Assembly (NCBI GenBank): GCA_001464935.1
Contig: LNEL01000055.1
Location: forward strand, 83,056 to 147,055
Origin: Gammaproteobacteria bacterium Ga0077536
GTDB lineage: Bacteria; Pseudomonadota; Gammaproteobacteria; Ga0077536
Reading direction: 5' to 3'
DNA length: 64,000 bases
Positions 11,433 to 39,009 of the stretch are shown piece by piece. Numbering within the stretch: position 1 is the stretch's first letter; every line of letters starts with the position of its first letter. Below the pieces are notes generated by a model that worked only from the letters and a program-made list of their open reading frames with translations, searched no databases and was not told the DNA's origin. Made by a program: the position numbers and the translations under genes.

Positions 11433-12470
11433 ATGGGTCTTCGATTCGGCGTACTGTGGCCATTCCGCAATCCGGCATTTGCGCGCGTGCCGTGGGAACA
11501 ACTGTACCGTACACACCTCGACCTGATCGTCGATTCCGAAGCGATGGGCTTCGATGACGCGTGGTTGACCGAACATCATTTCGTCGACGACGGCTACTCT
11601 CCGTCGCTGCTGCCGATCGCCGCCGCCGTCGCCGCGCGCACCAGCCGCATCCGCATCGGCACCTTCCTCGTGCTGCTCCCGATGCACAACCCGGTGCGCA
11701 TCGCCGAGGACACCGCGACCGTCGACCAGATCTCGAACGGCCGTTTCGAACTCGGCGTCGGTCTCGGTTACCGCCGCGAGGAGTTCGAGGACCAGGGCAT
11801 TTCGCACACCGAGCGCGGCGCCCGCCTGCAGGAAGGCATCGCCGTCGTGCAGCGCCTGCTGAGCGGCGAGTCCGTCACCCTCGACGGCAAGTTCAGCAAA
11901 CTCAAGAACATCCAGATCGTGCCGCCCGCGCTGCAGCGCCCGCACCCGCCGCTGTGGCTCGGCGCCCTCGCGCCGAAGGCGATCGAACGTGCCGCGCGCA
12001 TGGGCTTCCACTTCCAGGCCGTCGGCTCGACCGCGCTCGACAAGATCTACGACGAAGCGCTGGTCAAGCACGGACGCGATCCGCGCAACTTCAACATCGC
12101 GCAGCTGCGCGCGGTGTTCGTCGCGCCGAGTCGCGAGCAGGCGTGGGAACTCGCCGCGAAGCCACTGCACTACATGGCGACCTGCTACGCGAAGTGGTTC
12201 GCCGAAGCCGCCGACAAGCCGGGTGACGAAAAGGCGATGGAAGGCATTCCGACGGTCGACGAGATGATCAAGAAGCAGGCCTTCAGCTTCTTCGGCGAAG
12301 ACGCCATCGTCGGCACGCCGAAGGACGCGATTGAAATGATCGACGACTACCGCAAGCGCGGCCGCCTGACGCACATGGTGTGCGCGACGGCGCTGCCGGG
12401 TCTGGCGCCGCACAACGTGCGCGACAGCATGGCGCTGTTCGCCCGCGAGGTCATTCCGCGCTTCCGCTGA
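11433..12470 (+). CDS. LLM class flavin-dependent oxidoreductase
   Basis: 345 aa luciferase-like monooxygenase family protein. GGGGAG RBS. Confidence 0.85.
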   Translation: MGLRFGVLWPFRNPAFARVPWEQLYRTHLDLIVDSEAMGFDDAWLTEHHFVDDGYSPSLLPIAAAVAARTSRIRIGTFLVLLPMHNPVRIAEDTATVDQISNGRFELGVGLGYRREEFEDQGISHTERGARLQEGIAVVQRLLSGESVTLDGKFSKLKNIQIVPPALQRPHPPLWLGALAPKAIERAARMGFHFQAVGSTALDKIYDEALVKHGRDPRNFNIAQLRAVFVAPSREQAWELAAKPLHYMATCYAKWFAEAADKPGDEKAMEGIPTVDEMIKKQAFSFFGEDAIVGTPKDAIEMIDDYRKRGRLTHMVCATALPGLAPHNVRDSMALFAREVIPRFR

Positions 12471-30795: not shown

Positions 30796-31962
30796 ATGTT
30801 CGTAGCGACGAAGGACAAGATGCTGCCGACCGCCATGGTCGGCTCGTTTCCGAAGCCCAGCTGGTTCAATCAGAACCTGCAGGGGCGGCCGTTCAAGGTC
30901 GCGATGGGCGACTCGATGTATCGCGAGCAGTATCTCGACGCCGTCGCCTGCTACATCAGTGAACAGGAACGCGCCGGCCTCGACATCCTCGTCGACGGCG
31001 ACACCCGCTTCGACCTCGAGGTCGGCGGCCGATCGTGGTTCTTCTATACGATCGAGCGTCTGCACGGCATCACGGGCTTCCGCGACAGCTCGCATTTCCT
31101 CGACTATGGCGACATGAAGCCCGGCCACATCCTGTACGAAGTGCAGGAATCGTGGACCCCGCCGACGGTGAGCGGCCCGATCTCGCGTGGCCCGCTGCAC
31201 TTCAGCGCGATCTGGAAGACCGCGCAAAAGATGAGCGATCGCCCGGTCAAGTTCGGCTCGATCTGCGCGACCTGCCTGCCGATGATGCTGTGGAACGAAC
31301 ACTACGCGAACGATCGCGACATGGTGATGGCCATCGCCGCGGCGATGAACGAGGAGTACATCGAACTCGCCGACGCCGGTTGCCCGGTGATCCAGATCGA
31401 GGAACCGGTGCATCACTTCAACTGCAACGCCCACCCGCCGTGCACGGACAAGGATCTCGAGTTCTACACCGAGGCCTTCAATCGCCAGGTGCAGGGCGTG
31501 AAGACCGAGATCTGGGCCCACACCTGCTGGGGCAATCCCAATCAGCAGAGCTTCTATTGGGAGCGCCCGAGCTACGAGCGGCCGCTGCCCTACTTCCTCG
31601 CGATGAACTGCGACGTGGTGATGCTCGAAGGCGGCAGCAATCAGGCGCGCGACATCGCGCTGCTGAAGCACCACAAGACCGACAAGAAGATCGGCATCGG
31701 CGTCGTCGATCACACGCGCACGACCGTCGAGTCGCCCGATCAGGTCGCCGCGACGATTCGCCATGCGCTCGAGTTCGTGCCGCCGGAGAGGCTGATCATC
31801 ACCGCCGACTGTGGGTTCGGGCGCGAAGGCCTGTCGCGCCGCATCGCGCACTACAAGTGCGTGTCGCTGGTGCTCGGCACGAATATCGTCCGGCGCGAAC
31901 TCGGGCTCGACGAGGTGCCCGTGCGCGTCGCCGACCCGCGCTACGCTTTCAATCAGGGGTAA
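30796..31962 (+). CDS. cobalamin-independent methionine synthase (MetE C-terminal domain) family protein
   Basis: 388 aa starting MFVATKDKMLPTAMVGSFPKPSWF; GGAGG RBS. About 470 nt of untranslated leader upstream. Confidence 0.85.
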   Translation: MFVATKDKMLPTAMVGSFPKPSWFNQNLQGRPFKVAMGDSMYREQYLDAVACYISEQERAGLDILVDGDTRFDLEVGGRSWFFYTIERLHGITGFRDSSHFLDYGDMKPGHILYEVQESWTPPTVSGPISRGPLHFSAIWKTAQKMSDRPVKFGSICATCLPMMLWNEHYANDRDMVMAIAAAMNEEYIELADAGCPVIQIEEPVHHFNCNAHPPCTDKDLEFYTEAFNRQVQGVKTEIWAHTCWGNPNQQSFYWERPSYERPLPYFLAMNCDVVMLEGGSNQARDIALLKHHKTDKKIGIGVVDHTRTTVESPDQVAATIRHALEFVPPERLIITADCGFGREGLSRRIAHYKCVSLVLGTNIVRRELGLDEVPVRVADPRYAFNQG

Positions 31963-32099
31963 GCACTGCGTTCCAGGTCAGGGCGCCGGCCCCCTGTGCG
32001 ACGACACGCAGGGGGCCGGCGACGGCCGCCGCCCTCGACCCCGCGCGTGCCGCCATTGAGCTGTGTGTGCGCTGCCCGATTGACGCGATAATCGCGGCC

Positions 32100-34007
32100 A
32101 TGTGCGTTCTTCTCCGGCTCCCGGCTGCCGCCCTGCTGTGGCTCCTGATGCTTGCCCCTGCCAGCGCAGTGCGGGCCGACGCGGCTGAAGGCGCGCTGCT
32201 GATCCTGCTGTCCGATCAACCGGACGCGCCGTCACTGACCGACCGGCACCGCGCGCGACACACGGCGTTTCTGGCGCGGGCAGCGCGCAGCGAAGCCGCG
32301 ATTCGCCAGGCATTGCCGGCCGCTGTGCGCAAGCCGGCGCGGTTCGAAGCCCTGCCGGCCTTGAATGCCTGGCTGCTGCATGCGCCGGAGCACTCGCTAG
32401 CCGGGGCCTACGCCGCAATCAATGCTGCCAGCGCGCGCCTGGGGATCGTGCATGTCGCGCGCCATGGGCTGAACCTGTCACCGCCCGATGCACTGCCCAC
32501 TGCAGGCACCGCGCCGCTCGGGGCCGCCGCCGCCCTCTCGCCACGCCGCACACTCGGCATCATCGATCTCGGCGCCGATCTCTCGCACCCGCTGCTGCAA
32601 CGGGCACTGGGCCGCGTGCATGTCCAACCCGGCACGCCGGGGGCGGGCGCCGACGGACGACTCATTCGCTCGCACGGCACCGCAATGGCGGGCGTCTATG
32701 CGCAACTGCTGCAGGGCCAGCCGCTGCGCGCGGGCGGTGTCGACCTGCCGTGGCTCCGACTGCCGCGCGCGATCGCGCTGACCGACACCCTGGTCGCACA
32801 CGCCGGCCCCGAGACGCGGGCCGGCCGCAGCGATCTCGCGCGCGCACTGAACTGGATGCTGACGCCGACGCCCGATCGCCCGCTGCCGGATGTGATCAAC
32901 TACAGCCAGGGCAACGGCCGCCTGTGCGCGAGCGGCACGCCCGACTGTGATCCCGCGACCTGGGCCGGCGTGACGCGCGTGATTGATCGCCTCATCGACG
33001 AACTGGGCGTGACGGTGGTGAAGTCGGCCGGCAATCGCGGGGATCGCGACGACAACACGATGACGGTGCCGGGCGAGACCTTCAACGGCATCACCGTCGG
33101 CAACATGCATGCCTTCGACTGGCAGGCCTGCGCCGCAAGCGCCGAGCGTCGAGCGCACAAGATCTATCGCACGAGCAGCGTCGCGCCGGCGGCGCCCGCG
33201 CCGCGCCTGCTCGATGTCGTCGCGCCCGGCGTGCGCATCGACACCACGGGCGTGAATCCTGCGTACTGCCGGACCGTGTGCGATCGACGCTCCGATCTGC
33301 CGTGCAGCTTCTGCCCGCGGCTAGGCCGCTTCGAGGCCGCGCGCCAGAGCTACTGGAAGGTGAACTCGGGCACGAGTCCCGCCGCAGCGGTGGTCGGCGC
33401 GCTCGCGCTGTCCGTGATCGACGAGGGGCTTCGCGATCCGCGTGCCGTGAAGGCGCTGCTGATCAACAGCGCCGACACCTGGACCAGCGCAGACACCCCG
33501 CATCCGCGCGTGCGCGGCAACGGCGGCGGCTGCGAGGCGGACGTCACGGCCGCCCGGCACGCGCCGTACCCTTATGGCGCACATTACGATCGCCGCTACG
33601 GCTGGGGTTACGTGAACCCGGCTCGCCTGGCGCGGGAGCGCGCGCACACAGTCGTCGACTCGGCCGATGGGCCGCGCTGTTACGCGGCGACGCTCGAAGC
33701 CTGGGACAAGATAACGCTCGTCTGGCATCGACACGTGCGCAGCTGCGCTGGCTGCGAAATGGATGCGTCGTCCGCGCTGACCCGCCTGCACCTGGACCTC
33801 GTGTCGGTGCAGGACGCACGCACGATCGACAGCGACCGGGGCCAGAGTCCGCTCGACAACGTGCTGCAGGTATCGAACGGTCGCGGCCCGGCGGCTGCGC
33901 CGCGCGCGCAGGCCGTCATCGTGCGGGTCGACGCTGCCGCGGCGGAGTCCTATGCGCTCGCGAGTCCGCGCGCGCTGACGCGCCTGCCGTCGTGCCCGAC
34001 GCCGTGA
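32100..34007 (+). CDS. S8 family serine peptidase (subtilisin-like), secreted
   Basis: Signal peptide, then the Asp (IIDLGAD), His (HGTAMAG) and Ser (SGTSPAAAVVGA) catalytic motifs. Start at M356 of a 990-aa track ORF whose 5' part is antisense junk. Confidence 0.8.
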   Translation: MCVLLRLPAAALLWLLMLAPASAVRADAAEGALLILLSDQPDAPSLTDRHRARHTAFLARAARSEAAIRQALPAAVRKPARFEALPALNAWLLHAPEHSLAGAYAAINAASARLGIVHVARHGLNLSPPDALPTAGTAPLGAAAALSPRRTLGIIDLGADLSHPLLQRALGRVHVQPGTPGAGADGRLIRSHGTAMAGVYAQLLQGQPLRAGGVDLPWLRLPRAIALTDTLVAHAGPETRAGRSDLARALNWMLTPTPDRPLPDVINYSQGNGRLCASGTPDCDPATWAGVTRVIDRLIDELGVTVVKSAGNRGDRDDNTMTVPGETFNGITVGNMHAFDWQACAASAERRAHKIYRTSSVAPAAPAPRLLDVVAPGVRIDTTGVNPAYCRTVCDRRSDLPCSFCPRLGRFEAARQSYWKVNSGTSPAAAVVGALALSVIDEGLRDPRAVKALLINSADTWTSADTPHPRVRGNGGGCEADVTAARHAPYPYGAHYDRRYGWGYVNPARLARERAHTVVDSADGPRCYAATLEAWDKITLVWHRHVRSCAGCEMDASSALTRLHLDLVSVQDARTIDSDRGQSPLDNVLQVSNGRGPAAAPRAQAVIVRVDAAAAESYALASPRALTRLPSCPTP

Positions 34008-34037
34008 GGCCGGACTGAACGCCTTCGCCGACCTCGC

Positions 34038-34679
34038 TCACCAGCGCAGCACGCGCGGGCCGACGAGCGCCCCGACGACGGCGGGCAGCAGCATCCCGAG
34101 CACGTACCACACGCCGATGAAGGGCGCTGCGAGTTCGGGACAGTGGAGCGCGTAGACGCCGGCCGCGGCCGCGCCTGACAGCAGACCGGCCGCAGCGCCG
34201 GCAAGACGCAGGCGGGTCGGCGCCAGCCCACGCAGCGCCCACAGCGTGGCCAGCAGCATCGGCACCGACAGGCTCCCGATATACAGCGGACAGACCCGCC
34301 AGGTTTCGCCGAACAGCAGCGCCGGACGCGTCGCGGGTGCGGCGCCCAGCAGCGCGAACGCGGCGACGCTCCAGATCACGGCCACCGGGATCACGAGCCA
34401 CACCGCGCTGGCGCCGAGCGTCGCCCCGGGACGGGCGAGCCTGGCCGCCACGCGCAGCGCCCCGGCGCACAGCGCCAGCGGCAGCGCGAGCTTCAGCCAG
34501 AACATCGGCAATGTTGCGACCTGCAACAAATCAGGCTGCAATCCCAGCGTGGTCAGCATCTGGCACGCGGCCACCGGCACGCTTGCGGCGAGGGCCAGCG
34601 TCCAGCGCCGCTGCGCGACGCCCGGCGGCGTCGGCTCGAGTCCGCGCGCGAGCATCTGGACCAGCTCATCGGTGTTCAT
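34038..34679 (-). CDS. nrsF: NrsF-family anti-sigma factor (DUF1109, six TM helices)
   Basis: Membrane protein directly downstream of and overlapping the ECF sigma gene. Confidence 0.75.
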   Translation of the reverse strand: MNTDELVQMLARGLEPTPPGVAQRRWTLALAASVPVAACQMLTTLGLQPDLLQVATLPMFWLKLALPLALCAGALRVAARLARPGATLGASAVWLVIPVAVIWSVAAFALLGAAPATRPALLFGETWRVCPLYIGSLSVPMLLATLWALRGLAPTRLRLAGAAAGLLSGAAAAGVYALHCPELAAPFIGVWYVLGMLLPAVVGALVGPRVLRW

Positions 34680-35190
34680 CGCGACCTCCCAACAGGCTGC
34701 GCGCGAGGGCCTTCATGCCGCGGTGGATGCCGATCTTGACCGCCGACGCGGACATGCCCGTGCGGGCTGCCGCCTCCTCCACCGACAAACCTTCGAGTTT
34801 GACCTGCTCGATCGGCAACCTGAAACGGGGCGGCAGTTCAGCCAGCAGCCTGCCCAGATCCCGGCGCGCGGTCGCGGCGTCGTGCAGGCTGTCTTCGACG
34901 AGGGCGTGGCCATCGTCTTCGGGCAACGGATCTTCCGCGCGGCGCGTGTCGCGACGCAGGTGATCGATCAGTTTGTACTTCGCAATCGCATGCACCCACG
35001 GCGTGAACGGCTCCTCCGGCAGCCAGGTATGGCGTTGGTTGTGCACGGCGATCAGGGTTTCCTGCACGAGATCCTCTCCGCTGTCCGGGTCGCCACTGAG
35101 CCGGCGACGGAAAAATGCCCGCAGATGGCCGCTCAGCGCGAGCAGCAGCGCCTGGTAGGCCGCCGCGTCACCGCGCTGGGCCTCGATCAT
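34666..35190 (-). CDS. ECF RNA polymerase sigma factor (sigmaF-like)
   Basis: Sigma-70 regions 2 and 4 (LVQETLIAVHNQRHTW...EQVKLEGLSVEEAAARTGMSASAVKIGIHRG). Start set at M31, downstream of the autoregulatory promoter. Confidence 0.75.
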   Translation of the reverse strand: MIEAQRGDAAAYQALLLALSGHLRAFFRRRLSGDPDSGEDLVQETLIAVHNQRHTWLPEEPFTPWVHAIAKYKLIDHLRRDTRRAEDPLPEDDGHALVEDSLHDAATARRDLGRLLAELPPRFRLPIEQVKLEGLSVEEAAARTGMSASAVKIGIHRGMKALARSLLGGRDEHR

Positions 35191-35242
35191 CAGGGCCTTG
35201 AACTTCGCTTCGACCGTATCCAATGCGGTGTTACTCGGTGAG

Positions 35243-35268
35243 TTCGCTGGCGGCGGTCCGCCGGTTAC
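35243..35268 (-). promoter_or_regulatory. ECF-type promoter GTAACC-N16-CGAA driving the sigma/anti-sigma operon
   Basis: The minus strand reads GTAACC GGCGGACCGCCGCCAG CGAA about 45 nt upstream of the proposed sigma start. Confidence 0.6.
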
Positions 35269-35313
35269 AGCACGGTGCAAAAGATTTCGTTCCGCCTATT
35301 TTCGCACGCCGAT

Positions 35314-35339
35314 GTAACCGGTAGCGATAACGCGACGAA
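35314..35339 (+). promoter_or_regulatory. ECF-type promoter GTAACC-N16-CGAA driving the bufferin operon
   Basis: GTAACC GGTAGCGATAACGCGA CGAA about 75 nt upstream of bufA. Same motif as the divergent promoter above. Confidence 0.65.
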
Positions 35340-35413
35340 CTAGCTCCTCGACCGCCAGCCGCCAGCCCGGTGCGGCGCCTGGCCCCCCATCCACCTCGAG
35401 GAGTTTGACCATC

Positions 35414-35686
35414 ATGAAGGATCATTCAATTACCCTGACCGCGATTGCCCTCAGTGCGCTGGTGTCCGGTGCCGCGATGGCGGCCGATACCGCCCCGGCC
35501 AAGGAGAAATGCTACGGCGTGTCACTCGCCGGCCAGAACGACTGCGCGGCCGGTGCGGGCACTTCGTGCGCCGGCACGTCGAAGGTCGATTACCAGGGCA
35601 ACGCCTGGAAATATGTGCCGGCCGGCACCTGCACGACAATGAAGACGCCGAGCGGCATGGGTTCGCTGACGCCGGTCGAAGGCTGA
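35414..35686 (+). CDS. bufA: bufferin-type RiPP precursor (DUF2282), Sec signal peptide, four Cys
   Basis: [23 protein letters not shown]|[52 protein letters not shown]...; GAGGAG RBS. Confidence 0.8.
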
Positions 35687-35698
35687 GGTCAGGCCGCC

Positions 35699-36547
35699 AT
35701 GAGACTGTCCGCGGGCTTGAGTCTGAAGCCGGCCCACCTCGCCGCTGCGGAGGAGAGCGACGCGGACGGTCTCTGGTTCGAAGTGCATCCCGAGAACTAC
35801 ATGGTCGACGGCGGGCCGCGCGCGGCCTGCCTCGATCGCCTGCGGGCGCGCTACCCGCTGTCATTGCACGGTGTCGGCCTGTCGCTCGGGGCCTGCGCCA
35901 CGCCCGATACGGCGCATCTGCGCCGTCTGCGACAACTGTGCGAGCGACTCGAACCGGCGCTGGTGTCCGAACACCTCGCGTGGTCACGCTGGGACGACTT
36001 CTGCCTGCCCGATCTGCTGCCAGTGCCACGGACCGCCGAGGCGCTGGCCTGCGTGTGTCGCAACGTGTCGATCGTGCAGGACGCGCTCGGCCGCGCGATC
36101 GCAATCGAGCACCCCTCGCACTACCTGCACATTGCCGAGCACGAAATCGATGAACCGGCGTTTCTCGCCGAACTCTGCGCGCGCACCGGCTGCGGCCTGC
36201 TCGTCGACGTCAACAATGTTCACGTCAGTGCCCACAATCTCGGCCTCGATGCGGCAGCTTGGCTCGACGCCATCCCGGCCGCCGCCGTGCACGAAATCCA
36301 CCTCGCCGGACACAGCGCGGATCCCGTGCTCGGCCCGGCACTGCTGATCGACAGCCACGACACGCCCGTCAGTGCCACCGTGTGGACGCTGTATCAGCGC
36401 CTGCTCACCCGCATCGGACCCCGCCCGACGCTGATCGAGCGCGACGATCGGCTGCCCGGGTTCGAGGTCCTGATGCAGGAGCGCGGCACCGCCGCCGCGC
36501 TGCTGGCCGCGGCCGTCGTCCCGGCACGCGCGATGCAGCACGCATGA
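35699..36547 (+). CDS. bufB: MNIO (DUF692/UPF0276) multinuclear non-heme iron oxidase
   Basis: 282 aa TIM-barrel DUF692 (LHGVGLSLG, EHLAW, HLAGH). Confidence 0.85.
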   Translation: MRLSAGLSLKPAHLAAAEESDADGLWFEVHPENYMVDGGPRAACLDRLRARYPLSLHGVGLSLGACATPDTAHLRRLRQLCERLEPALVSEHLAWSRWDDFCLPDLLPVPRTAEALACVCRNVSIVQDALGRAIAIEHPSHYLHIAEHEIDEPAFLAELCARTGCGLLVDVNNVHVSAHNLGLDAAAWLDAIPAAAVHEIHLAGHSADPVLGPALLIDSHDTPVSATVWTLYQRLLTRIGPRPTLIERDDRLPGFEVLMQERGTAAALLAAAVVPARAMQHA

Positions 36548-37299
36548 GCCTGCACGCATTCCAGCAGCAGTTCCACGCGGCACTGTGGCACGACGCGTCG
36601 ACGGCATTGAGCGCGCAGCCCGGCTTCGCCGTGTATCGCAATACGGTGATGAAGGGCTGTATCGATGCGCTGGTGGCCAACTATCCGGCCGTGGTCTCGC
36701 TCGTCGGTGAAGACTGCGTGCGCGCGGCGGCCGCCGTGCATGTGCGTGCAGCGCCGCCCACGCAACCGATGCTGCTGCAGTACGGCGCAGGCTTCGCCGA
36801 TTTTCTCGCGCACTTTCCGCCGGTCGCGGCGTGGCCGTGGTTGCCGGCCGTGGCCCGGCTCGATCGGCACTGGACCGAAGCGCATGTGGCCGCCAATGCG
36901 CCCTGCGCCGACGCCGCCCTGCTCGCGACCTGCGCGCCCGATGTGCTCGGCGCGCGCTGCCTGCAACCGCATCCCGCCGCGCGCTGGCTATGGTGTGGCG
37001 AGGCACCGGCCCTGAGCCTGTGGCAGATCAATCGCGGCGAGCGCCCGCTGCCGGCCGCCGGGCTGTCGTCGCTGCCGTGGCACGGCGAAGGCGCCCTGAC
37101 GACGCGCCCGTTCGACACCGTGCGCGTGAGCGCGCTGCCCGCGGCGGGCTGCGTGCTGCTCGACGCCTGCGCGCAAGGCGCGACGCTGGCGGCCGCGGTC
37201 ACCGCGGCACTGGCCGTCGCACCGACGCTCGATATCGCCGCGCTGTTCGCACAGCTGCTGACGATGGGCGCCTTTGCGGCCAGCGATCCGGCTGCATGA
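36544..37299 (+). CDS. bufC: DUF2063 partner protein of the MNIO
   Basis: [17 protein letters not shown]... typical DUF2063 N-terminus. ATGA overlap with bufB. Confidence 0.8.
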
Positions 37300-37322
37300 A
37301 CACCTCAACAAAGGAGCATACG

Positions 37323-37790
37323 ATGTCGTACCAGACCAGGCCGGACATCGGCGTCCCGGCCATCGCTGCGTTCAGGGACACCGTGAACGCTTTGCTCGAA
37401 CGCATTCCGGAGGCGTTGATCGGTCTTGCGGCGCGGCTCGGGGTGGCCGCGATCTTTTTTCTGTCCGGCCGCACGAAGGTCGAGGGCCTGATCTCGCTGA
37501 AGGACACCACGTACCTGCTGTTCGCGGAGGAATATCGTGTGCCGCTGCTGCCGTCGGACATCGCAGCGCACCTCGCGACCTATGCCGAGCACCTGCTGCC
37601 CGTGCTGCTCGTGCTGGGACTCACGACCCGGTTTGCCGCGCTCGGCCTGCTCGGCATGACGGCCGTGATCCAGGTGTTCGTCTACCCCGACGCGTGGCCC
37701 ACCCACCTGACCTGGGCGGCGCTGCTGCTCTATCTCGTCGCGCGCGGCGGCGGTGCCTGGTCACTCGACCGCTGGCTCCGCCTCGGCTGA
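37323..37790 (+). CDS. DoxX family membrane protein
   Basis: 155 aa with four TM helices. Perfect AAGGAG RBS. Confidence 0.85.
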
Positions 37791-37803
37791 GCCGCCGGCG
37801 CGA

Positions 37804-39009
37804 TCAGATCAGCGGCGAGTTCTGCGGCAGGCCGAGCAGGATGCGGCCGTACATCTCGAGGTTCGTGCGGTGCGTGAGAATGCCGTGCAGGCTCGAAGTG
37901 TTGATGTCGCGCCAGATCCGCTGCAGGGGGTTCGACTCCCCGAACGCCGAGCCGCCGCTCGCCGACACCAGCAGGTTCACCGCTTCGCGCGCGTAGTGCA
38001 CGGCGCGACTGCAGTCCATTCGCATGCGCGCGCGGGCCGCGAGATCCGGATAGGAGCCAGCCGCGGCGAGGCTGTCGATGTCGTCCGCGGCGCGATACGC
38101 ATGCAGGTGCGCGGAGTCGATCAGCATCGCGGCCTCGGCAATCTGTTCGTGTGTGACGGGCGCGTCGATCTGGCGATCGTAGGAGGTGTAGATGATGCCG
38201 CGCGAGGGCATCTGCTCACCGAAACAGTCGAGCGCCGCGCGCGCGAGGCCGAGCGGCGGGCCGACGAGGATCATCACCAGCACCGGCATGAAGCCGGCAC
38301 GATACAGCGCCTCGTCCTTGTGTTCGGTCAGGTAACGGCCTTCGATCGCCCCGGTCAGCGACATCACCCGGTGATCGGGCACGAAGACTTCCGTGCCGAC
38401 GAGCGTATTGCTGCCCGTGCCGCGCATGCCAACGGAGAACCAGCTGTCTTCGATCGCAAGTTCGCTCATCGGGATCAGCGCAAAGCCCTGATCGACGACC
38501 GCGCCTGCGTCATCGACGACGGGGATACCCACCGCCGCCCACTGCGCGTGCAGGCACGCTGACGCCCACGGCCACTTGCCGGTGACGACGTATCCGTCGG
38601 CGACCCTGCGCGTGGTGGCGCGCGGCGCGACCACGGCACAGACGCGGGCATCCGGATCGGCGCCGAAAATCTCGGCCTGCACGCGCGCTGGGTACAGGCC
38701 AATCACCCACGAGCACATGTTCAACAGCGCCGTGACCCAGCCGGTCGAGCCGCAGGCGCGCGCGATCTCGCCCGAGATCGTGATCGTCGTGCGCAGATCG
38801 GCCTCTGCGCCGCCGTAGCGACGCGGCGTCGACACCCGCAGCAGGCCGGCCGCGCGCAGCGCGTCGATGTTCGCGTCGACGACGCGCCGCCCTGCCTCCG
38901 TCGCGGCGGCGTTGTCGCGAATCAGGGGAAACAGTTCGCGCGCCCTTTCGATCAGCGGGCCGGCCTCGAGCGGGGCACTGTGGCTGCGATACGGCAGGGC
39001 CTGCGACAT
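37804..39009 (-). CDS. acyl-CoA dehydrogenase family flavin-dependent monooxygenase
   Basis: 401 aa from M44 (AGGAG RBS); ACAD fold. Confidence 0.8.
   Translation of the reverse strand: MSQALPYRSHSAPLEAGPLIERARELFPLIRDNAAATEAGRRVVDANIDALRAAGLLRVSTPRRYGGAEADLRTTITISGEIARACGSTGWVTALLNMCSWVIGLYPARVQAEIFGADPDARVCAVVAPRATTRRVADGYVVTGKWPWASACLHAQWAAVGIPVVDDAGAVVDQGFALIPMSELAIEDSWFSVGMRGTGSNTLVGTEVFVPDHRVMSLTGAIEGRYLTEHKDEALYRAGFMPVLVMILVGPPLGLARAALDCFGEQMPSRGIIYTSYDRQIDAPVTHEQIAEAAMLIDSAHLHAYRAADDIDSLAAAGSYPDLAARARMRMDCSRAVHYAREAVNLLVSASGGSAFGESNPLQRIWRDINTSSLHGILTHRTNLEMYGRILLGLPQNSPLI

Follow-up and report, generated by a model that had tools for sequence, protein, structure and literature searches.

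Divergent ECF16-type promoter motifs between a sigma-nrsF gene pair and a bufferin operon in Gammaproteobacteria bacterium Ga0077536

Gene content of the locus

The window analyzed here is a 64-kb stretch of contig LNEL01000055.1 from Gammaproteobacteria bacterium Ga0077536. Near its center, two divergent sets of genes face each other across a short intergenic region, as follows.

34038..34679, - strand: nrsF, encoding a DUF1109 six-transmembrane anti-sigma factor (213 aa; Pfam NrsF 4.3e-67, profile positions 1-204 of 204)
34666..35223, - strand: putative ECF16 sigma factor gene (185 aa when counted from TTG 35223, the best call for a reassigned start; Pfam Sigma70_r2, r4_2, ECF)
35414..35686, + strand: bufA, encoding a DUF2282 bufferin precursor (90 aa, signal peptide, 4 Cys; Pfam DUF2282/BufA1 1.8e-26)
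35699..36547, + strand: bufB, encoding an MNIO (DUF692) modification enzyme (Pfam MbnB_TglH_ChrH 2e-95)
36544..37299, + strand: bufC, encoding a DUF2063/HvfC_N partner protein (251 aa; Pfam DUF2063 3.4e-22; gene call in L081)
37323..37790, + strand: bufD, the last gene of the operon, encoding a DoxX family membrane protein (155 aa; Pfam DoxX 1.6e-16; gene call in L081)

These Pfam matches confirmed the gene identities assumed in the first-pass annotation (ECF sigma, NrsF, DUF2282/BufA, MNIO, DUF2063 and DoxX). The sigma factor is of the group 4 type, having regions 2 and 4 only, and gave matches to Sigma70_r2 (2.7e-11), Sigma70_r4_2 (3.5e-11) and Sigma70_ECF (3.4e-8) without other domains. Its 185-aa sequence is identical to P0001, a gene call in a JGI metagenome, and the metagenome contig carries the identical sigma gene together with the same bufferin operon. 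The closest named relatives of the protein are from Burkholderiaceae (MAGs; 59-62% identity), and it shares 54.6% identity with Cupriavidus metallidurans RpoQ over 94% of its length.

The last 14 nt of the sigma gene also belong to nrsF, and the two genes are therefore probably cotranscribed. As a member of its family, NrsF is predicted to have six transmembrane segments. Two of its cysteines are highly conserved among homologues, namely, Cys130 (90/92) and Cys180 (88/88), and the remaining ones (39 and 71) are not conserved. Cys130 and Cys180 are the counterparts of C129 and C179 of OsrA, which are functionally required (PMC3420878), and conserved anti-sigma cysteines were shown to have a role in function and signal release (PMC3420878, PMC8315932). 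Judged by the sigma domains, the adjacent nrsF, the two cysteines, the promoter described below and the similarity to RpoQ, the pair is assigned to the ECF16 (SigF-like) group on sequence grounds.

On the other side, the bufA product has a hydrophobic N-terminus, judged by eye to be a signal peptide, and its 4 Cys lie in the core; a Shine-Dalgarno sequence (GAGGAG) is located at 35398-35403. The gaps bufA-bufB, bufB-bufC and bufC-bufD measure 12 nt, -4 nt and 23 nt, the start of bufC overlapping the stop codon of bufB (ATGA). The set bufA-bufB-bufC-doxX corresponds to the bufferin buf1ABCD set of Leprevost et al. 2024, and the precursor together with the MNIO, DUF2063 and DoxX proteins identifies it as a predicted bufferin (BufA1/DUF2282) cluster.

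Two divergent GTAACC-N16-CGAA motifs and their conservation

The intergenic region between the sigma gene and bufA contains the following features.

35243..35268, - strand: predicted ECF16 promoter of the sigma-nrsF operon (-35 GTAACC 35268-35263, -10 CGAA 35246-35243)
35269..35313, no strand: shared core between the -35 hexamers (45 bp), with mirror-image upstream elements TTTTGCACCGTGC (-) and TTTCGCACGCCGA (+)
35314..35339, + strand: predicted ECF16 (SigF/RpoQ-type) promoter of the bufferin operon (-35 GTAACC 35314-35319, 16-nt spacer, -10 CGAA 35336-35339)

The first-pass annotation had pointed out two divergent copies of GTAACC-N16-CGAA at 35243-35339, and we indeed found exact copies on both strands, GTAACCGGTAGCGATAACGCGACGAA at 35314-35339 (+) and GTAACCGGCGGACCGCCGCCAGCGAA at 35268->35243 (-). 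These were the only 2 exact matches on either strand of the 64-kb window. In 100 dinucleotide-preserving shuffles of the window, the mean was 0.03 exact matches per window, and none of the 100 contained 2. The two CGAA elements have their outer edges at 35243 and 35339, giving 97 bp from CGAA to CGAA, and 45 bp separate the two -35 hexamers. On the + strand, 74 nt separate the end of CGAA from the bufA ATG (35414), in agreement with the earlier estimate of about 75 nt. From the end of the - strand CGAA, there are 19 nt to TTG 35223 and 52 nt to ATG 35190; the figure of about 45 nt previously given for the latter distance is slightly off for the motif itself and fits instead the 44- to 48-nt leader that would extend from the predicted transcription start. 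With its flanks, the sigma-side motif reads cTGTAACC-N16-CGAAC (35269->35242). The upstream elements in the 45-bp core are T-rich and UP-element-like and are candidates for a function, and a 22-nt inverted repeat (arms 35261-35282 and 35300-35321, 77% complementary) spans the core and both hexamers.

The motif had been recognized as the signature of sigmaF-type ECF promoters, and it matches the published ECF16/SigF-type promoter (PMC3511200, PMC3420878). GTAACC-N16-CGAA was described as the SigF-binding sequence on the basis of 5'RACE and lacZ data (Kohler 2012, PMC3511200), and tGTAACc-N16-CGAA was quoted as the ECF group 16 promoter in a study that showed autoregulation of ecfF (Masloboeva 2012, PMC3420878).

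We then scanned GTDB species representatives with the sigma alignment and obtained 80 loci with 49-62% sigma identity (best, 62%) from Burkholderiales, Pseudomonas, Luteibacter and others. The nrsF gene was located downstream in nearly all of them, and a divergent bufA-bufB was present in about half. The exact motif was found on the sigma strand in 68/80 loci, on the divergent strand in 51/80 (for the divergent-side exact motif, 30 of 51 loci with divergent bufA) and on both in 48/80. Within the 500 nt that precede sigma, it occurred at a density of 2.96 per kb, versus 0.074 per kb elsewhere in the loci; the latter value is itself far above random, which suggests that there are more regulon promoters nearby. 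The internal spacing was 16 nt in all but one motif, although 15-17 nt was allowed. The distance from CGAA to the start-codon column had a mode of 17 nt (range, 14-23; 19 in the window), that between the -35 hexamers was 33-132 nt (mostly 33-63; 45 in the window), and that from CGAA to bufA was mostly 55-131 nt (74 in the window).

On both sides, a wider consensus emerged, ttTTt-N9-gcTGTAACC-N16-CGAA(c/t)TAcc, with the ttTTt-N9-gcTGTAACC portion derived from the logos of 68 and 52 promoters of the two sides. The window fits this consensus on both strands, which explains its 22-nt mirror symmetry. Among nine closer relatives, with 66-90% protein identity, both the spacers and the DNA between the promoters have diverged freely, and TGTAACC, CGAACT and the start codon (TTG/GTG) stay fixed. 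The bufA-side motif is kept, as CTGTAACC...CGAACTA, in 6/6 close relatives that have bufA. The motifs are thus real: they far exceed the chance expectation, and their sequence, spacing and register are all conserved.

Several other candidates in the window were rejected. A third copy with one mismatch, GTAACA-N16-CGAA (35234->35209), lies 18 nt before ATG 35190, and it seemed to be a tandem promoter because its geometry relative to this ATG resembles that of the real promoter relative to TTG 35223. However, GTAACA is kept in the closest relative (L086) only, and the CGAA is a Val-Glu codon pair that reads GTC-GAG in other relatives. A variant with N17 spacing at 11745-11771 (-) lies antisense within a luciferase-like monooxygenase gene and was thus considered a chance match. 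An 8-bp perfect pairing between 35344-35351 and the bufA Shine-Dalgarno region (35396-35403) would form a leader hairpin (-30.2 kcal/mol, z = -2.4), part of the 5' arm of which may sit upstream of the transcription start. Related leaders do not conserve this hairpin, since only 8/40 of them pair the Shine-Dalgarno region with the 5' end. An Rfam search of 34900-35800 yielded nothing relevant.

Predicted regulation and comparison with characterized ECF16 systems

Very probably, the region harbors two divergent ECF16 promoters, one of which autoregulates sigma-nrsF while the other drives the bufferin operon, with NrsF acting as membrane sensor and brake. That a single sigma factor autoregulates and drives the bufferin operon was also the proposal of the first-pass annotation, and the published ECF16/SigF-type motif, together with a two-sided arrangement conserved in register, makes it the best reading.

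In unstressed cells, six-transmembrane NrsF would hold the sigma factor at the membrane, and metal or oxidant stress, sensed via Cys130 and Cys180, would free it. RNA polymerase loaded with this sigma factor, encoded next to the 97-bp stretch 35243-35339, would then bind TGTAACC (-35) and CGAA (-10) on both strands. Rightward transcription of bufA-bufB-bufC-doxX, predicted to start at about 35344-35348 (+) with a bufA leader of about 66-70 nt, would lead to a periplasmic copper-chelating bufferin peptide. Leftward transcription of sigma-nrsF from about 35234-35238 (-) would constitute a positive feedback checked by NrsF, and the sigma factor would be translated from TTG 35223 (185 aa) behind a leader of 11-15 nt. 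The starts were predicted 5-9 nt after each CGAA because the corresponding distance is 9 nt in C. metallidurans and 6 bp in Bradyrhizobium (PMC3420878). We infer the same regulation for this organism by analogy with such systems, along with the precise transcription starts and the signal that triggers induction; sigma-dependent transcription from the motif and its repression by the anti-sigma factor are known from the homologues in Caulobacter, Bradyrhizobium, Brucella and, for the rpoQ promoter, Cupriavidus. Copper-inducible, SigF-controlled expression is likewise a candidate property here, with the promoter sequence as support.

The closest parallel is Caulobacter crescentus/vibrioides, in which sigF-nrsF (CC3253-CC3252) and CC3254-CC3257 (buf1ABCD) show the same gene set, order and divergence as the window, with GTAACC-N16-CGAA before both units. 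The CC3254-57 and CC2907-05 promoters were mapped by 5'RACE and are highly similar to the sigF promoter, and lacZ fusions showed that the CC3254 and sigF promoters both need these elements and SigF (PMC3511200). CC3252 (NrsF) antagonizes SigF, and sigF is only weakly autoregulated and also needs a second regulator (PMC3511200). The C. vibrioides bufferin is copper inducible and SigF controlled, and the modified peptide chelates copper (Leprevost 2024, PMC11626156). The mapped Caulobacter start lies at -61, compared to about -66 to -70 predicted for bufA in the window. Caulobacter is an alphaproteobacterium, whereas the host of the window is beta-/gammaproteobacterium-like.

In Bradyrhizobium japonicum, EcfF-OsrA resembles the window in combining an ECF16 sigma factor, a DUF1109 anti-sigma factor with two conserved cysteines and GTAAC-type autoregulation, the ecfF transcript starting 6 bp after the -10 box. 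In both cases, too, the annotated sigma start codon had to be corrected to a downstream one. The EcfF motif is less strict, GTAAC(g/a)-N14-15-(c/t)CG(t/a); the regulon consists of oxidative-stress genes, and an adjacent bufferin operon is not described. In Brucella melitensis, BcrS-AbcS is also an ECF16 sigma/anti-sigma pair with a divergent target operon, bcrXQP, directly upstream of the sigma gene. The bcrXQP promoter, TGTAAC ... GCGAAA, was mapped by 5'RACE (PMC8315932); unlike the bufferin cluster, the operon encodes MsrPQ-type methionine sulfoxide repair proteins and is HOCl responsive.

C. metallidurans CH34 provides a further case, and its RpoQ was assigned to ECF16 (PMC13492112). The rpoQ-rsqA/gigPABT locus shares the divergent layout of the window, and we found exact motif copies on both strands of the chromid, 34 bp apart, at 1315203-1315228 (+, rpoQ side) and 1315168-1315143 (-, gigP side). 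A 2026 study reported TSS_1315237 (+) and a promoter fragment that was metal induced and inactive in a delta-rpoQ mutant (PMC13492112); in the homologous motif, the last A of CGAA precedes this start by 9 nt. In CH34, about 150 nt separate the sigma-side promoter from the homologous start column, compared to 19 nt in the window, so that the CH34 gene must have a long leader or else the N-terminal extension of 42 aa that is annotated for it. According to the same study, neither rpoQ nor gig has an ECF16 motif, and RpoQ dependence of gig could not be shown; its Table 4 gives the ECF16 consensus as -35 XAATTCG and -10 XXGGTTAC (PMC13492112). Reverse complementing these elements gives CGAATT and GTAACC; apparently, then, the consensus used in the ECF16 search was that of the wrong strand.

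We consider it rather unlikely that the bufA-side promoter alone is physiologically important, with sigma-nrsF mainly under another promoter or regulator and little autoregulated. Such an arrangement would fit the observations that Caulobacter sigF lacks strong metal induction and that its second regulator acts on -37 to +37 (PMC3511200), that bcrS promoter activity in Brucella stays high in a delta-bcrS mutant (PMC8315932), and that the sigma-side transcript expected in 17/59 related loci has no canonical start upstream of an invariant Glu. However, it is the sigma-side motif that is better conserved (68/80 versus 51/80), in a fixed register with the coding sequence; the rpoQ promoter of C. 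metallidurans is metal induced and loses its activity in the delta-rpoQ mutant (PMC13492112); and Bradyrhizobium ecfF is autoregulated (PMC3420878). Moreover, a scan of 33900-38000 for sigma-70 promoters gave no match, a result that also weighs against the two-promoter reading because it offers no source of basal sigma expression. Since autoregulation is weak in Caulobacter and basal bcrS expression is sigma independent in Brucella (PMC8315932), autoregulation from the two-promoter region may be modest here and perhaps supplemented by another regulator, as in those two organisms.

Start codon of the sigma factor and remaining alternatives

The first-pass annotation had argued that TTG 35280, used by the open reading frame track, is wrong, and this was borne out: TTG 35280 is located upstream of the -35 hexamer and therefore cannot be the start on this transcript, and the 19 residues that it adds are not conserved. 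Its own choice of ATG 35190 was not upheld. We compared the codons of 90 homologous loci anchored on a conserved GD motif, with residues numbered according to the 185-aa protein, and observed that the residues encoded by 35211-35191, upstream of this ATG, are under purifying selection at the protein level. Residue 5 is Glu in 89/90 loci (GAA in 51 and GAG in 38), residue 8 is Leu in 87/90 (encoded by CTG, CTC, TTG or CTT), residue 11 is Leu in 84/90, and residues 7 and 9 are Arg or Lys, via both CGN and AGG/AAG. Residue 12, which corresponds to ATG 35190 in the window, is Leu in 39 loci, Phe in 28 and Met in 23 (n = 90).

The column of residue 1 (TTG 35223) is a start codon in 40/90 loci, versus 4-6/90 in neighboring columns. 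TTG or GTG occupies it in 8/9 close relatives, the ninth having GTG one codon upstream. Seven loci (L030, L032, L050, L063, L068, L076 and L046) have an in-frame stop at CGAA or immediately behind it, which leaves the residue-1 codon as the sole possible start, and the Acidovorax loci have a strong GGGAGA Shine-Dalgarno sequence ahead of an ATG at this position. From these comparisons, the sigma factor most likely starts at TTG 35223 (185 aa), replacing both TTG 35280 and ATG 35190.

A start at ATG 35190, which would leave the promoters as described and give a 174-aa protein behind a leader of 44-48 nt, is unlikely. As a start codon, ATG is stronger than TTG, and here it has AAGG 5 nt upstream; TTG 35223, a weak codon, is preceded by only a weak Shine-Dalgarno-like GAG 10 nt upstream, and this weak ribosome-binding site leaves room for some initiation at ATG 35190. 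The shorter form also has precedents: Bradyrhizobium ecfF was re-annotated downstream to a distal start, as forced by the mapped transcription start, giving 170 aa (PMC3420878); Brucella BcrS has 174 aa (PMC8315932); start codons at residues 11-13 are fairly common in relatives (24, 27 and 21 of 90); and some gene callers chose the 174-aa form (e.g., P0007). Nevertheless, residues 5-11 upstream of the Met are selected as protein, the Met position is Leu or Phe in 67/90 loci, and the 174-aa protein would keep just 6 residues before the GD motif.

The 17/59 loci whose sigma-side transcript lacks a canonical start before the invariant Glu raise a related, and quite improbable, reading. For 13 of these 17 loci, an ATG that always occupies the same place within the promoter spacer is the sole in-frame canonical start; examples of such loci are L038, L042 and L054 from Betaproteobacteria MAGs and L041 and L043 from Paraburkholderia. 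The sigma-side promoter may thus yield a transcript that is unable, or poorly able, to encode full-length sigma, with two isoforms made from two transcripts: a basal one, starting upstream, for the full-length protein, and the autoregulated one for a form shortened at its N-terminus. In the window, the autoregulated transcript would carry the weak TTG on an 11- to 15-nt leader along with the internal ATG 35190, use of which would give a protein without the conserved N-terminal helix. If true, this would be a built-in brake or switch on ECF16 positive feedback.

Very improbably, the motifs are not two promoters at all but half-sites of one long inverted-repeat operator for a dimeric DNA-binding protein. 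The copies are inverted, and their symmetry extends to 22 nt per arm. Yet the half-sites are anywhere from 33 to 132 nt apart in different genomes, whereas the N16 inside each is essentially fixed, with one exception; 20 loci have the sigma-side motif alone, and many more single copies precede other genes. The variable distance and the many single copies thus led us to exclude a single palindromic operator. Moreover, the two blocks of each copy are arranged as in an ECF promoter, and the mapped C. metallidurans transcription start is 9 nt downstream of one copy. Finally, the specified sequence is short (10 bases), but that both motifs arose by chance has a negligible probability, given 0.03 expected per window versus two found 45 bp apart in the sole intergenic region adjoining the cognate sigma gene and their conservation in >60 genomes.

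The motif, sigma group, anti-sigma factor, target operon and divergent layout were all published already, and the divergent promoter pair is in this respect real but ordinary, with nothing conceptually new. What it provides is a functional annotation of the window as a putative copper/oxidant stress module composed of an ECF16 sigma factor, NrsF and a bufferin operon, along with two promoters, the transcription starts predicted for them and a correction of the sigma start codon. Genomes from Burkholderiales, Pseudomonas and other groups use the Caulobacter motif without change, and its presence at the rpoQ start and before gigP in CH34 is a reason to re-examine RpoQ control of the gig (bufferin) operon.

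Promoter motif copies at rpoQ/gigP and in the window

In Cupriavidus metallidurans, the ECF16 sigma gene rpoQ lies divergent to the gig (bufferin) operon, of which gigP is the first gene. A 2026 paper reported that no ECF16 motif was found at rpoQ/gigP (PMC13492112). That paper lists the ECF16 consensus as -35 AATTCG and -10 GGTTAC, which corresponds to the real motif, GTAACC-N16-CGAA, in reverse complement. We observed that the rpoQ/gigP intergenic region of the CH34 chromid (L091) is bordered by two exact copies of this motif:

L091 1256-1281 (NC_007974.2 1315143-1315168), minus strand: exact GTAACC-N16-CGAA, gigP side
L091 1316-1341 (NC_007974.2 1315203-1315228), plus strand: exact GTAACC-N16-CGAA, rpoQ side

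The published RpoQ-dependent transcription start TSS_1315237 (PMC13492112) lies 9 nt downstream of the rpoQ-side CGAA. Since an exact copy is also present on the gigP side and the published consensus was reverse complemented, the gigP side is predicted from its sequence to carry a promoter as well.

In the window, the two promoters mirror each other up to 14 nt past the -35 hexamer (TTTyGCAC...TGTAACCGG). In the family-wide logo, this T-rich block recurs on both sides, some 10-14 nt before TGTAACC, and it may be an UP-like element or the site of a second regulator. The symmetry and two further motif-like matches are located as follows:

35261-35282 and 35300-35321: arms of an imperfect inverted repeat of 22 nt
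35209-35234, minus strand: GTAACA-N16-CGAA, third copy with one mismatch, overlapping the TTG at 35223
11745-11771, minus strand: GTAACC-N17-CGAA, antisense within a luciferase-like monooxygenase gene (11433-12470, plus strand)

The third copy ends 18 nt before the ATG at 35190. It is probably fortuitous as a further promoter, since its conservation reaches the closest relative and no further and its CGAA is part of a Val-Glu codon pair. The match at 11745-11771, being antisense inside a gene, most likely arose by chance.

Start codons within sigma-side promoters

The called sigma frame of 185 aa contains an invariant Glu at residue 5, and in 17 of 59 related loci a canonical start codon was absent between the predicted transcription start and this Glu. 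In 13 of these 17 (L008, L014, L016, L022, L028, L038, L041, L042, L043, L054, L059, L062 and L070), the sole in-frame start was an ATG located within the promoter spacer, at precisely 9 nt upstream of the final A of CGAA, and the frame was closed upstream by the TAA inside GTAACC. Among the related loci, ATGCA at that spacer position was the majority state in sigma-side promoters and was absent from bufA-side promoters. The window sigma-side promoter (35243-35268) lacks the spacer ATG.

The bufA leader

Most bufA-side promoters of the related loci carry a conserved box, (C)AGACCG, about 9-15 nt downstream of CGAA, which is absent from sigma-side promoters and would be placed at the extreme 5' end of the predicted bufA transcript. 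The window has a counterpart of this box and a potential leader pairing:

35348-35354, plus strand: counterpart of the box, reading TCGACCG
35344-35351 with 35396-35403, plus strand: perfect 8-bp pairing of CTCCTCGA with TCGAGGAG

The 3' arm, TCGAGGAG, contains the bufA Shine-Dalgarno sequence, and the 5' arm may lie partly upstream of the transcription start. Folding of the leader gave -30.2 kcal/mol (z = -2.4). Pairing of this type was not conserved in most of the related bufA leaders compared.

Genes surrounding the sigma gene

Just downstream of nrsF, the window carries a convergent gene:

31035-34007, plus strand: Peptidase_S8 (subtilase) gene

A Peptidase_S8 gene is likewise convergent to nrsF and just downstream of it in two related contigs with 66-71% sigma identity (L084 and L089), which may represent conserved synteny. 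L081, a metagenome contig (JGI 3300002461), has a sigma gene identical to that of the window and the same buf operon. Its register with the window is lost below approximately 34224, with mismatches at 1847 of 6558 positions that begin at the end carrying nrsF and the peptidase gene, and this suggests an indel between the two sequences. In L081, nrsF was called as a truncated protein of 152 aa without a Pfam hit, versus an intact NrsF of 213 aa in the window.

In loci without a divergent bufA (L038, with L022, L042, L054, L058, L062, L065, L066 and L077; L008; L064; L027; L047, with L004 and L072; and L025), the ECF16 motif faces, by Pfam, genes for cytochrome b561 family proteins (PF01292), MsrB/SelR, MsrA/PMSR, a thioredoxin-like protein, DoxX or DUF1223. 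These loci show that bufferin genes and genes of methionine-sulfoxide or redox repair replace one another as the sigma-proximal target in ECF16 systems.
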